IMG/VR virus record: IMGVR_UViG_3300025273_000046
DNA: 64,000 nucleotides
Strand: one strand, 5' to 3'
Source: a virus
Part shown: positions 7,199 to 39,941 of the stretch, one piece after another
Position numbering within the stretch: position 1 is the stretch's first letter
How the letters are laid out: every line of letters starts with the position of its first letter
Made by a program: the position numbers and the translations under genes
The notes under the pieces: model-generated
Seen by the model: the letters and a program-made list of their open reading frames with translations, nothing else
Databases searched by the model: none
Told to the model about the DNA's origin: nothing

Positions 7199-8247
7199 CT
7201 ATCCCAGCTGATAAACCGCCGCATTGTCCTGCACCTGGCGAAGCCCCTTGAAGGACGAATGGCGTAGCTTGCGGTCGTCGGTCCAGGCTCGATATTCGAT
7301 CTCGGCGATCAGCGTCGGCCGCAACCAGACGACATCATTCCGTCGACCAGCATACTGGATCGGCGGCGTCTTTCGCTTGATCCTGTCCATCATTCCACGC
7401 AGCTTCCAGGCGACGCTGTCCTTGAAGCCCGTCCCGACCGAGCCGACATAGACCAGGTCGTCACCCCTACGAGCGGCGAGCAGCAGTGCGCCAATATGGC
7501 CGCGCGCCGCCATCGATATCTCGTAGCCGACGATGAAGAAACTGTCGCTTTGGATGCATTTGATTTTCAGCCAGTCGCCAATCCGGCCGGATCGATAAGG
7601 CGCATCTCTGCGCTTGGCGATGAGGCCTTCGAGGCCGTGAGCGCAGGCGCTTGCCAGCAGCTGGTCGCCGTCGGCTTCGATCTCTTCCGACAAACGGACG
7701 GCGCCGGCAGCATCGTCGAGGAGATCCTCGAGGATGTGCCGGCGCTCGCTCAGGTCCATGCGCGTCAGATCATGTCCATCGAAATAGAGAAGGTCAAAGG
7801 CCATCAGGATGGATTCGTGGGAGGTCTTCTTGCCGCCGCGACCGCCGAGGCTTTGCTGCAACAGCCCGAAGTCCGACCGGCCCAGTTCGTCGAGAACGAC
7901 CGCCTCGCCGTCGAGGATCGCCGTGGCGACGGGAAGGCTTTTGGCTGCCTGCTCGATCTCCGGAAAGCGATGCGTCCAGTCATGGCCGCCGCGCGTCAGG
8001 ATGCGCACGCCGGCGGGCTCGATGTGCACCGCCAGCCGGTACCGTCCCATTTGATTTCATAGACCCAGCCGTCGCCCTTCGGCGGCCTCGCTTTGAGCAG
8101 CGCAAGGCACGGCTCGATGCGCGCAGGCATAGGGTCAAGGGGAAGGCTTGGTTGGGAGGGGTCGCGCCGGCGGCGAGGCGCGCTGCGGATAGGAGTATCT
8201 GTTTCACGCAGCAGCGGTTTCGAAGACTTGCGGGGCGGCTTTGTCAT
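7199..8247 (-). pseudogene. ATP-dependent DNA ligase (LigD ligase domain only), frameshifted in motif I
   Basis: ORF 7996-8247 ends ...WVYEIKWDG and ORF 7199-8050 resumes YRLAVH...TRGG, with ILDGEAVV, EGLIAKR and WLKIK. The sequence GAC GG TAC CGG lacks one base. Confidence 0.88.
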
Positions 8248-10443: not shown

Positions 10444-10710
10444 TCAGATTTCCGTGTAAGGCCTTGGCGGAATCTTGCCGCCGTTCGCTTGGTATAGCCG
10501 CTCCCCCTCAGGGAGTGGCCATGCGTAGCGGATACTCGTCCCCACCTCGATCAGGTTTCGGCGCTCAGCACGTTCTATCGCCCGCTCAGCCACCTTGAGC
10601 GGCTGGCCTGTCATTCGCGCTAAGACCTCAATATTATTGCCATTCGCGCCATTCTGGCGCTCCTTGATCGCATTGATCACATCGAAGTCGGAGATATCTT
10701 TTCTCGCCAT
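10444..10710 (-). CDS. Small winged-helix-like protein directly downstream of the tRNA-mimic RNA
   Basis: 88 aa; pattern IEVLARMTGQPLKVAERAIERAERRNLIEVG...WPLPEGERL resembles a wHTH fold (inference). Confidence 0.7.
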   Translation of the reverse strand: MARKDISDFDVINAIKERQNGANGNNIEVLARMTGQPLKVAERAIERAERRNLIEVGTSIRYAWPLPEGERLYQANGGKIPPRPYTEI

Positions 10711-10717
10711 GTGTCGC

Positions 10718-10895
10718 CCTGAAAATTAAACGGGGGTGCTCTGACCGGCCTGAGCTACCTCGAAAGGAAGGGATTCGAACCCCTGACCTCCCCCGCCACG
10801 TTGCGCTACCAGACTGCGCTACCGTCCTAAGACGAGCCGGATTCGAACCGGCGACCACCGTGCCCTTGAATTTACACTCAATCACTTTCGTCAGG
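10718..10895 (-). ncRNA. Y-RNA (YrlA)-like ncRNA with two tandem circularly permuted tRNA-like modules
   Basis: Module 1 (10862-10797): CACGG-TGGTC-GCCGG TTCGAAT CCGGC-TCGTCTT/AGGACGG-TA-GCGC AGTCTGGTA GCGC-A-ACGTG. Module 2 (10795-10731): CGGGGG-AGGTC-AGGGG TTCGAAT CCCTT-CCT TTCG AGG-TA-GCTC AGGCCGGTCA GAGC-A-CCCCCG. Basal stem CCTGA(CG)AAA..TTGAG / TTTAA-TTT-TCAGG. All helices were checked by eye; expression is unproven. Confidence 0.8.
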
Positions 10896-13469
10896 TTAAG
10901 CCACCTGCGGCAGGTAGGGATGGTTGACATCCCGGGCCGACAGGTTGGGCCTGATGACGTTATCGTAGTCCACGTCCTGAACGGCAACAGCAGCGTCAAT
11001 GGCAGCGGCGGCGATGACGCCAGCCGCCTCTCCCTTGAGGCCACCCGTAAGCTCCAGCCGCTCCATGAACCATGCAATCTTCGTGCTGGACGATGCCCAG
11101 GGGATGATCACATTCTTCTTACGCGCCTTGTCTGGCACGATAGCTTCCAGAGGGATAGGTGCCATCTTGTCAACACCAGCTACGACCTCGGGGACACCCC
11201 CTTGGCTGTAGAGCAGGCCGCCAGAGACGACCTTCCAGGGGCGGTGCCTATCGCTGTCGTAGGAGGTAACCGCCACGGTCTTGAGGGACCTTGGTGCGGT
11301 GCCATCCGTGCGAGCGTAGTCGGAACCACTGGACACGTAGCCGTCATTCTTCAACTGCCACACGGGGTCACGCTGGTACGGCCTGGAGGGCACGAACAGC
11401 AGCTCTCCCGGTCCAGCATCCAGGAAGCTTGCGGCATCCGGCTGGAGGGCTCGGAACTGAGTGACCAGCGTCGAGGGGATGCGGCTGTCTCCCGAGTAGG
11501 AGTGCCAATCCCACCAACCAAGCTGGTAGTCCCTGATGTCGTCGGCCACCGCATGCTGGCCTGCGCGGTCAGCCGCGTGGGCGTAGTTGTAGCCGCTGCT
11601 ACCAAGGTCCGTCGAGAGACCCCCGGAGCCATTGTTCACGTCCACGATGCCAGCCGTCGGGCCGACCACGAACTGAAGGATGGTCTGGGTGTTGGACGGG
11701 TCGGAGATGGTAACATCCGTCTTCTGGACGTAGAGGCGAGCACAGGTCTCGTACCTCAAGGCATTCCTGTTGCGGCCCGGATCGAACTGCGAGAGGTAGG
11801 CCTTACGGGTCTCGATGGTCGTCATTGCCCAGCGGAAGTTCATCGACTCCAGCGACGGGTCAGGGCCGTTCAGGGTCAGCCCTGGGAGGGGCAGAGTGCC
11901 CTGGATATCAGGCAGGAGGCCCGATGCTGGGTTGCCCGCCACGATGTAAGGGTCGATGTCGTAGGTGGTGTACGGCTTGAGTATCTGGGTTGCTCCCAGG
12001 TAGCCGTTGTACTGCTCGGAGCCGGCGCCAGAAGCTTCGGACCCAATGATGTACGGGAGGCCAGACTTGTAGACATATTCACCATCGTAGTCTGCCCCGA
12101 TGAAGATAGAGCCGGTGAACTCTCTGCCGTCATTGGTGACCAGGACCTGATCCACGTCGCCAGCCACGTTGGTCTTGATCTGGGCGATGCCAGTCGAGAA
12201 GTAGACGGGGATGTCCTGCCCGAGGATGAGCGCACCGTTGGTCTTCGTGGGGTCCAGCATGCGGCGGACGCCCTGTTGGAACACACGGCTCTCCAGGGAG
12301 TTGGTCGCTTGGTTGTTCGCGTCGGCTCGCCCATAGATGGCTGTGTTGGCCCAGGAGGTGAGGTCCCTCCATAGACCCTTACACGCAGTGAAGGCGTAGC
12401 AGTCCATGTAGGCGAGGCCCTGCGTCGGCATACCGGCGACACCCCAGTCCGTCTTCACGAAGTCGTCGCACACGATGCAAACCGTCTTGCCTGCCTGCTT
12501 GGCGGCATAGGCTGCACAGACTGCGGTCCAGCTACCACCGTAGACAACCACGTCGTACGAGAGGTACTGAGGCGCGTAGCCTGCCTCATAGACATCCATG
12601 AAGCCGAAGCGGCCCTTCTCGTAGAAATCCAAGAGGGCCGCGCTGATGCGTATCCGCTGCGCCGGCGTGAGTTTGACCTTGAAGATGGCGAAGAGGCCGC
12701 AGTCATGCGACGACACGGCGCCACCATTGATGCCACCGAGGTGGATTGTGGGGTTGGTCGATGGGGCAACGTAGGTGACCGAGGGCGTCTCGCGCGAGAA
12801 ACCGAACGTGTCTATGGAGTCGGACGTAATGCAGTGCATTCCCTGGCCGAGGAAAGCTGTTGAGGTGGATGCGTAATTGGCGCTCTGAAACCGGCCATTG
12901 AACTTGTTGCTGGCATCACGGACATTCGCCGCGATGCCGTCGCCAGAAGCCGTTTGAGCGCCGAAATCACCACCTGACGCGCCAGCGACGGTCCTGGAAT
13001 AATAAAAGATGGTGAATTCGCCCTGGGTGAAGGTCTGAAGCCCTATCCCGGTATTGTACTTCGCGGTACTCGACCAGCCGCCCCACCGATCATTGGCCGT
13101 AAAGGTGGGCGTGCCCGCCCCCGTAAGTGTCAGGTCATTGGTGCCTGGGTGGAATAGATTGAGCCGAGACGTTGGTTCCGTGGTCGCGAACGAGGCGGAG
13201 TACAGGGACAAAGCGTCGGACATGGAGGCCCCCGCATCCTTGATGATGCGGACGAGCCTGTCATAGTGGTACTTCTGGCGGCGCGACATGGTGACGCCCT
13301 GGCCTGCGCGAGCGGCTTCCAGGGCGGTTGTCTCTGATTGGAATGTGAAATTTGGCAGCGACGGCGTGCCGCCGCCTCCGCTGCGCGAAAATGGTCGGCG
13401 ATCGACGGTCTTGTTGACCGTCTTCGCCAGCCCGCGAATATTGGCAAGTCTCGTCGCAACGCCGGCCAT
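10896..13469 (-). CDS. Fusion of an N-terminal phage-type domain and a FAD-dependent oxidoreductase-like domain
   Basis: C-terminal ~550 aa carry YDVVVYGG..TAVCAAYAAKQAGK, IGADYDGE...YIIGSE, TSYDSDRH and IPLEAIVP...RLE..G..GEAAG..AA...VQDVDY, all matching that family's motifs. Confidence 0.8.
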   Translation of the reverse strand: MAGVATRLANIRGLAKTVNKTVDRRPFSRSGGGGTPSLPNFTFQSETTALEAARAGQGVTMSRRQKYHYDRLVRIIKDAGASMSDALSLYSASFATTEPTSRLNLFHPGTNDLTLTGAGTPTFTANDRWGGWSSTAKYNTGIGLQTFTQGEFTIFYYSRTVAGASGGDFGAQTASGDGIAANVRDASNKFNGRFQSANYASTSTAFLGQGMHCITSDSIDTFGFSRETPSVTYVAPSTNPTIHLGGINGGAVSSHDCGLFAIFKVKLTPAQRIRISAALLDFYEKGRFGFMDVYEAGYAPQYLSYDVVVYGGSWTAVCAAYAAKQAGKTVCIVCDDFVKTDWGVAGMPTQGLAYMDCYAFTACKGLWRDLTSWANTAIYGRADANNQATNSLESRVFQQGVRRMLDPTKTNGALILGQDIPVYFSTGIAQIKTNVAGDVDQVLVTNDGREFTGSIFIGADYDGEYVYKSGLPYIIGSEASGAGSEQYNGYLGATQILKPYTTYDIDPYIVAGNPASGLLPDIQGTLPLPGLTLNGPDPSLESMNFRWAMTTIETRKAYLSQFDPGRNRNALRYETCARLYVQKTDVTISDPSNTQTILQFVVGPTAGIVDVNNGSGGLSTDLGSSGYNYAHAADRAGQHAVADDIRDYQLGWWDWHSYSGDSRIPSTLVTQFRALQPDAASFLDAGPGELLFVPSRPYQRDPVWQLKNDGYVSSGSDYARTDGTAPRSLKTVAVTSYDSDRHRPWKVVSGGLLYSQGGVPEVVAGVDKMAPIPLEAIVPDKARKKNVIIPWASSSTKIAWFMERLELTGGLKGEAAGVIAAAAIDAAVAVQDVDYDNVIRPNLSARDVNHPYLPQVA

Positions 13470-39302: not shown

Positions 39303-39941
39303 TCATACCTTTTCGAGGATTGCAAGAGGCATCAACACAGGGGTCACACCTCCGAACACTTCCATCTCGACAACCGCGTCACCCTTCGCATCACTCCGGC
39401 AGGAGATGACCTTTCCCAGGAAAGAGGCGAATGGACCCTCTGAAATTCGCACCTGTTGGCCCTTCTTGAAGATGCGGACCGGCTTCTCCCAGTCGAGGTT
39501 ACCACTTTCCGCCAACGCCTTGAAACGCTTCACTTCTTGATCCGCAATACGATGCGGTCTCATGCAGCCGCCAAGCACGTCCAGGACGTGCTCCATACCC
39601 CGAACGCCAAGGAAAGCTTCATCGCTCGCCATGAAGCGAAGCAGCACGTAGCCCGTCATGACCGGGATCAAACTAGCAGGGATGATGCGCCCACGACGGC
39701 GATACTCCGGCCCCTTGCGCATCGGCACAACAGCCTCGACACCGGCGTCATCGAGCGCTCTATTCACACTTTTCTCTCTGCCGGACATCACCCTGAGGGC
39801 AAACCAAGGCGAATCATCCCGCGCTCTGAGCGATGCGTAGTGCAGCATGTCAGCCCTGATTCGCCGCATACGGTCTTCGAACCCTTCGCTCCCACTGACA
39901 GCGATCGGCGCCCCTTCAAATCTGTCATGCTGCATCGTCAT
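39303..39941 (-). CDS. NusG-paralog transcription antiterminator (Q position)
   Basis: WFALRVMSGRE, MTGYVLL and KOW motif GQQVRISEGPFASF.GKV. Confidence 0.9.
   Translation of the reverse strand: MTMQHDRFEGAPIAVSGSEGFEDRMRRIRADMLHYASLRARDDSPWFALRVMSGREKSVNRALDDAGVEAVVPMRKGPEYRRRGRIIPASLIPVMTGYVLLRFMASDEAFLGVRGMEHVLDVLGGCMRPHRIADQEVKRFKALAESGNLDWEKPVRIFKKGQQVRISEGPFASFLGKVISCRSDAKGDAVVEMEVFGGVTPVLMPLAILEKV

Follow-up and report, generated by a model that had tools for sequence, protein, structure and literature searches.

Y RNAs of the YrlA type (Rfam RF02553) contain a tRNA-like domain in which the parts of a tRNA come in a permuted order, with the T arm followed by a closed acceptor stem, the D arm and a closing stem. 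Previous work showed that this domain has the fold of a tRNA and that TruB and DusA modify it, also in YrlA of Salmonella (PMC4201824), and that the motif GNCGAAN0-1G is found near the 5' end of YrlA (Chen et al. 2014, PMC4201824). YrlA is left uncut by the DNA-damage-induced anticodon nuclease of Salmonella and has been proposed as a competitive inhibitor of that nuclease (PMC7790460). It is thought to derive from dimeric tRNA transcripts (10.1101/312249), and Ro60 and Y RNAs have also been described in phages (PMC4201824; PMC12135203). Another such molecule, the Band-7-associated tRNA-like RNA 'b7a-tRNA', was predicted by Burroughs and Aravind in 2016, as cited in 10.1101/312249, and tRNA-like RNAs have been proposed as aids to RNA ligation (10.1101/312249).

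In the window, that is, the whole stretch of 64,000 nucleotides (64 kb) of DNA analysed here, a siphovirus-type prophage carries two tRNA-like domains of this kind in tandem. The identity of the RNA is firm: it is a member of a tandem circularly permuted tRNA-mimic family. The first-pass annotation had described the locus as a YrlA-type tRNA mimic with two elbows inside a Y-RNA-like stem, and our results support the two-elbow mimic, with the YrlA model matching both modules, while the Y-RNA part of that description is weak.

Anatomy of the two-module RNA

The segment and its neighbours are arranged as follows, from upstream to downstream.

10896..13469, minus strand: upstream gene, 857 aa, with a FAD_oxidored-like C-terminal domain; conserved in related prophages without the RNA
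10711..10895, minus strand: whole cassette, 185 nt; an insertion by comparison with the closest relatives
10863..10895, minus strand: 5' leader (direct reading; motif count and duplex energy)
10797..10862, minus strand: module 1, a circularly permuted tRNA-like domain (Rfam YrlA 42.2 bits, model positions 23-86; covariation helices 1-5)
10796..10796, minus strand: linker G, a single nt between the closing stems (direct reading)
10731..10795, minus strand: module 2, a second permuted tRNA-like domain (Rfam YrlA 24.7 bits; covariation helices 6-9)
10711..10730, minus strand: 3' trailer with UCAGG (10718-10722) and an SD-like AGGG (direct reading; duplex energy)
10444..10710, minus strand: downstream gene, 88 aa, no family match; its 85%-identical homologue abuts an 856-aa gene in relatives

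Direct reading of the minus strand of 10600-11000 places the two modules at 10797-10862 and 10731-10795, and each of them runs from one strand of the closing stem through the variable loop, the T arm, a loop-capped acceptor stem, U8-A9 and the D arm to the other strand of the closing stem. This order, with the modules 1 nt apart, had been proposed before and is confirmed both by the reading and by the models, as is the claim, on direct reading, that both modules lack an anticodon loop and a CCA end. The 5' half of module 1 consists of CACG, GUGGUC, the T arm GCCGG-UUCGAAU-CCGGC and the capped acceptor UCGUC-UUAG-GACGG, and its 3' half of UA, the D arm GCGC-AGUCUGGUA-GCGC, AA and CGUG, after which comes the linker G at 10796. 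Of its helices, the closing stem (CACG/CGUG) has 4 bp, the acceptor-like stem has 5 bp and a UUAG seal, and the D arm has 4 bp; the variable loop ends in GGUC. Module 2 is built from CGGGGG, AGGUC, AGGGG-UUCGAAU-CCCUU and CCU-UUCG-AGG in the 5' half, and from UA, GCUC-AGGCCGGUCA-GAGC, A and CCCCCG in the 3' half; here the closing stem has 6 bp, the acceptor stem has 3 bp and is capped by UUCG, and the variable loop is AGGUC. The leader ahead of the modules contains a hairpin, UUGAGU-GUAA-AUUCAA, at 10866-10881.

The core formed by both modules is 132 nt long. About 46 of 66 positions are identical between them, mostly universally conserved tRNA bases, and U8, A14, G15/C48, G18G19, A21, G46, U54-A58 and G53-C61 are kept in both. 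The exact word GGTTCGAATCC occurs twice in the 64 kb, both times in the modules, and the joint chance of the two closing stems, whose 4 and 6 Watson-Crick pairs fall exactly where expected, is about 1e-6 by our own arithmetic. Plain MFE folding did not recover the cloverleaf-like cores (z=0.28), but this failure was not counted against the fold because tRNAs depend on tertiary contacts.

When the segment was scanned with Rfam models (cmscan), YrlA (RF02553) matched both modules at permissive thresholds, with 42.2 bits for module 1 and 24.7 bits for module 2. The alignments span model positions 23-86 and 23-85 only, which correspond to the tRNA-like domain, and stem positions 1-22 and 87-114 are unaligned in either match; the better score, 42.2 bits, is below the YrlA gathering score of 69 bits. 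The order of arms and stems in the YrlA domain is found in both modules. The only match at Rfam gathering thresholds was to tRNA (RF00005; 33.3 vs 29 bits; window 10760-10828, minus strand), and it spans the module junction, where 12 nt between D arm 1 and T arm 2 take the place of an anticodon arm. The stretch from D arm 1 to T arm 2 resembles tRNA-Pro genes, and the resemblance of D arm 1 fits the dimeric-tRNA origin put forward for YrlA (10.1101/312249). In the homologues, pairing between the strand before D arm 1 and the strand after T arm 2, which would form the acceptor stem of a tRNA in normal order, averages 3.5 of 7 pairs vs 3.3 of 7 in mismatched controls. Because this pairing is no better than in controls, we consider the tRNA match to be an adjacency artefact. 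ARAGORN called no tRNA anywhere in the window, and a free-ended acceptor stem, an anticodon arm and the normal order of arms are all absent. The view that the region is two decayed tRNAs in normal order, which the first-pass annotation had named among the findings that would overturn its reading, was rejected on the same pairing values.

Two sources of error in such searches were also observed. With tandem permuted mimics, RF00005 gives a systematic false positive in which the D arm of one module is joined to the T arm of its neighbour, and the reverse error is seen when R1, the covariance model described below, scores 53 bits on a tRNA-Pro array (L249).

Relatives of the RNA and their gene neighbours

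A covariance model, R1, was built from the 132-nt core with the proposed structure and searched against loci picked by a pattern of two T loops too close together for tandem tRNA genes. Full-length two-module matches were obtained in many bacterial loci (44-80 bits), in the viral contig L113 (177 kb; 51.6 bits) and in the metagenome contig L244 (73.4 bits). In an alignment of 28 sequences, 27 distinct rows share the architecture and keep all nine helices. Standard pairs make up 96.5% of the alignment cells vs 39-49% with slid partners, 32 of the 36 pairs change on both sides and 0 of 500 shuffles reach the observed values, figures to be read for an alignment that was fitted to the model and in which helix 6, the closing stem of module 2, is gap-rich. 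The helices expected to be maintained in homologues are therefore kept, and the conserved arrangement covaries across phyla.

The first, loose two-T-arm pattern returned mostly tight tandem tRNA genes from IMG/VR, and a tightened version left 13 viral loci, of which only L113 is a clean two-module match. Two metagenome scans were run, the first without a match and the second with L244 as its single locus. There was no true match in 151 sampled genomes of one alphaproteobacterial class (reached via L169), where the lone match is a tRNA-Pro array. The DNA runs containing the stretch, which are rhizosphere and soil metagenomes, show the sequence of the window unchanged across the RNA; since they show no variation, there is no covariation within the lineage. 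No RNA run was found to contain the stretch.

The RNA of L244 (868-992, minus strand; flanks 820-1032) is a near-twin of the one described here. A TGGTATAAT box lies 8 nt upstream of its first module, a 9-bp hairpin comes after the second, and an ORF of 200 aa of unknown function follows the RNA. The box and the downstream hairpin give it the look of an independent small RNA gene, and its sequence suggests that it stands alone as one. Elsewhere, three T arms occur in a row in L117, L132, L140, L173, L204, L206, L207 and L232 (Sphingobacterium) and in L125, L202 and L208 (Lachnoclostridium-like), mostly near Band-7/SPFH and RtcB genes, and the tandem mimic can therefore have more than two heads. 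Two Holophagales MAG loci (L137 and L198) contain arrays of ~65-nt direct repeats, each with a T-loop-like word, GGTTCGACTCC, and GTAGC; these look like a repeated tRNA-fragment array and not a two-module RNA.

At least 120 bacterial loci carry the tandem arrangement, mostly beside Band-7/SPFH and RtcB genes, and the architecture is thus not unique to this prophage. By tblastn, Band-7 genes were found at 84 of these 120 loci, RtcB at 49, RtcR at 36 and RtcA at 21, with TROVE at none (0/120). Five genomes whose RNAs were among the highest-scoring were examined for TROVE: the gene is absent from three of them, and in the other two it lies on a different contig. Because of these neighbour counts and this TROVE survey, the cellular relatives are assigned to a Band-7/RtcB class and not to an Rsr class. 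The neighbours of the viral look-alikes that were tested are ordinary phage genes such as those for terminase, portal, recombinase, methylase and HNH proteins, with no common partner and no DUF7873.

None of the candidate partners was found in the prophage. The ~59 ORFs scanned in the window gave no Pfam match to TROVE or DUF7873, and the gene upstream of the RNA, where DUF7873 is absent, is the one for the 857-aa FAD_oxidored-like protein. By the Pfam scan of ~59 ORFs and tblastn with two TROVE proteins, there is no Rsr/Ro60 gene within 4 kb or in the 64 kb, which agrees with the earlier observation of no Ro60 gene in the visible prophage. Band-7, RtcB, RtcR and RtcA were likewise absent from the window (tblastn, E<=1e-4) and from the viral two-module loci.

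Insertion of the RNA in a prophage operon

Two genes that adjoin directly in the closest relatives are here separated by the RNA segment, a precise 185-nt insertion (10711-10895). These four relatives, L245-L248, were reached through the 85%-identical homologue of the 88-aa protein and read ...GGCGTAA-T-ATGGCG... at the junction, with only a T standing between the stop codon of the 856-aa gene and the start codon (ATG) of the small one; R1 found no copy in them. It is this direct abutment (TAA-T-ATG) in relatives without the RNA that defines the insertion exactly. In L002, a syntenic relative, the genes for the 857-aa protein and the ligase are both present, with other cargo in between and no RNA, and L001, like L002 an IMG/VR relative of the 857-aa protein, is also without the RNA. 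Since relatives keep the flanking genes without it, the RNA is accessory cargo of the phage lineage. A hidden ORF in the segment was considered and rejected, the segment being absent in relatives.

The prophage has, on the minus strand, genes for terminase, portal, capsid, tube, tape measure and a J-like tail protein, followed by endolysin, small ORFs, the 857-aa gene, the RNA, small unknown ORFs and a LigD-type ligase. The proposal that the RNA is on the coding strand of a prophage operon is supported. No similar DNA and no relative of the 88-aa protein were found in GenBank phages, and a search of the 857-aa protein against genome contigs gave no match.

Other products of the prophage may be mentioned here. 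The 857-aa protein, with an unknown N-terminal 300 aa ahead of the FAD_oxidored-like domain, has 68-79% identity to its counterparts in L001, L002 and L245-L247, and in several related prophages its gene is conserved as the last large one after the lysis genes. The ligase is a stand-alone LigD-type NHEJ ligase domain (window 7199-8050, minus strand; TIGR02779, 301 bits), conserved in the syntenic relatives L002 and L245, and no Ku gene was recognised nearby. A NusG-domain protein encoded at window 39303-39941 (minus strand; PF02357, E 3.7e-16) in the early/regulatory region is possibly an antiterminator.

A promoter and terminator scan gave no site on the minus strand. There is a weak -10-like TAAATT 6 nt before module 1, which aligns with the TGGTATAAT box of L244, an agreement that is suggestive only. 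In the trailer, the SD-like AGGG is the only one before the ATG at 10710, and UCAGG overlaps it.

Possible roles and comparison with known systems

If the segment is transcribed and folds in vivo as its conservation predicts, the 132-nt core would present two tRNA-shaped elbows joined through their truncated anticodon stems by one nucleotide. Each elbow would consist of a T arm, a D arm, a short acceptor stem sealed by a loop and a truncated anticodon stem, and might be modified as other tRNA-like domains are. As a tRNA body without an anticodon loop or a CCA end, it could be neither charged nor used in decoding, nor cut by anticodon nucleases. The RNA appears to travel alone, as accessory cargo between two late-region genes, and two bodies with no partner gene make use in trans the most plausible. 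We thus favour, with a probability of roughly 45%, an RNA that acts in trans on host proteins recognising the body of a tRNA. It would be a non-cleavable competitor, or a scaffold, for these proteins, and during infection it would most plausibly blunt the tRNA-directed nucleases of host defence or stress. A narrower form of the proposal, a free-standing 185-nt moron whose partner-free, two-elbow decoy outcompetes for the tRNA-targeting defence nucleases of the host, is in our view unlikely; if true, the moron would be an RNA-only anti-defence element derived from the RNA-repair tRNA mimics of the cell. Against a decoy, the cellular relatives are in repair operons and not in defence loci, which makes a role as repair cofactor about as natural, no tRNA-targeting system is known for the host, and the GACGAAAG motif with the terminal CCUGA/UCAGG repeat allows an Rsr-binding reading.

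That reading would make the segment a true Y RNA, in which GACGAAAG and the CCUGA/UCAGG stem bind host Ro60/Rsr and an RNA-decay machine of the Rsr-PNPase type is redirected, with two tRNA-like effector domains in place of one. The definition of the motif given in the first-pass annotation is confirmed (PMC4201824), and the leader word GACGAAAG (10885-10892) fits GNCGAAN0-1G and is near the 5' end as in YrlA. However, the two strands of the window together hold 93 matches to the pattern GNCGAANG, so that one occurrence in a leader of ~40 nt has an estimated chance of ~5%, and neither L244 nor L113 nor almost any other homologue has the motif in its flanks. CCUGA (10891-10895) forms the first five bases of the insert and UCAGG (10718-10722) is 7 nt from its end, a placement with an estimated chance of 2-4% given the insert boundaries, but their duplex (-7.6 kcal/mol) is matched by 52% of shuffled flanks and the stem in the 45-nt flanks has a z of +1.3. 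The bulged basal stem said to enclose the modules is consequently not above chance, and it is not conserved in homologues. An Rfam scan of TROVE-bearing phage loci returned tRNAs only. With YrlA aligned outside its stem positions and no TROVE gene in the window or near any of the 120 bacterial tandem RNAs, we find a true Y RNA distinctly unlikely, even though phages are known to carry such RNAs. A cis-acting mRNA element is also unlikely, both as a stable block that shields the 857-aa message from 3' exonucleases or marks a processing site, and as a device in which the trailer and basal stem control the RBS of the 88-aa gene, uncoupled by the insert. Its appeal comes from the position of the RNA inside the operon, directly after the stop codon and ending 10 nt before the ATG, with no promoter or terminator called, from the coupling of the flanking genes in relatives, and from the overlap of UCAGG with the only SD-like AGGG. 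But L244 has the core as what appears to be an independent unit, and other copies of it are found among unrelated genes, which indicates a fold selected for itself and not for these neighbours, and the stem that would hide the RBS is the one that does not exceed chance. Acceptor stems of only 5 and 3 bp would probably be poor RNase P substrates, which also makes the RNase P punctuation signal once suggested for this RNA unlikely.

The genes around the best R1 matches, Band-7 and RtcB above all, would fit a cofactor that recruits or activates host RtcB/Band-7 RNA repair, a role presumed for the cellular relatives, so that cleaved tRNAs are re-ligated during infection, in line with the ligation role proposed for tRNA-like RNAs (10.1101/312249). 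We regard this as quite improbable for the phage copy, since the window has no RtcB or Band-7 genes and 0 of the 151 sampled genomes of the alphaproteobacterial class had a true match. Least probable by far is that the phage picked up a tandem array of tRNA genes of which the RNA is now a remnant without function. The 33.3-bit tRNA match across D arm 1 and T arm 2, its likeness to tRNA-Pro genes and the supposed origin of YrlA from dimeric tRNA transcripts (10.1101/312249) are what such a remnant would leave. Against it, ARAGORN finds no tRNA, an anticodon arm is missing, homologues do not conserve the acceptor pairing of a tRNA in normal order, and the closing stems of both modules are fully paired, with covariation of the entire arrangement across phyla. 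The trans-acting competitor or scaffold is our preferred explanation, and if the RNA turns out to protect the phage, this RNA family would become linked to the conflict over the cleavage of tRNAs.

Compared with known systems, the RNA is like YrlA in having the T arm first, a loop-closed acceptor, a D arm and an anticodon-like closing stem with the tertiary-contact bases kept, in the existence of phage-encoded examples and perhaps in the GNCGAAN0-1G word of its leader. Unlike YrlA, it has two tandem modules instead of one, scores below the Rfam threshold with the Ro-binding stem positions unaligned, has no Rsr gene within 4 kb or in the 64 kb, and has a basal stem that is not above chance. With phage tRNA genes and tRNA-derived counter-defence it shares the property of being a phage-carried, tRNA-shaped RNA that could meet tRNA-targeting host enzymes, but having neither an anticodon arm nor a free acceptor end, it could compete for such enzymes and not replace a depleted tRNA.

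The tandem mimics of Band-7/RtcB operons, the setting of b7a-tRNA, have the same two-module core, with R1 scores of 44-80 bits and covarying helices. Those mimics, however, are chromosomal, flanked by Band-7, RtcB, RtcR and RtcA genes, and often have a third T arm, whereas the window copy is a 185-nt phage insert without any such gene. No description of tandem modules was found in the literature searched, with Burroughs and Aravind 2016 and the 2020 Annual Review lying outside its coverage. Modules of this type have been known since 2014, and Ro-less tRNA-like RNAs have, as cited in 10.1101/312249, been predicted since 2016; what is new here is a minimal, partner-less, phage-borne copy that is exactly delimited as an insertion. 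One deletion of 185 nt would restore the ancestral gene junction, and the RNA is short enough for probing, pull-downs and competition assays. Because it is core-only, phage-borne, without the usual partners and bounded by relatives without the RNA, this copy offers a clean test object for what tRNA-like domains do in Y RNAs and RNA-repair operons.
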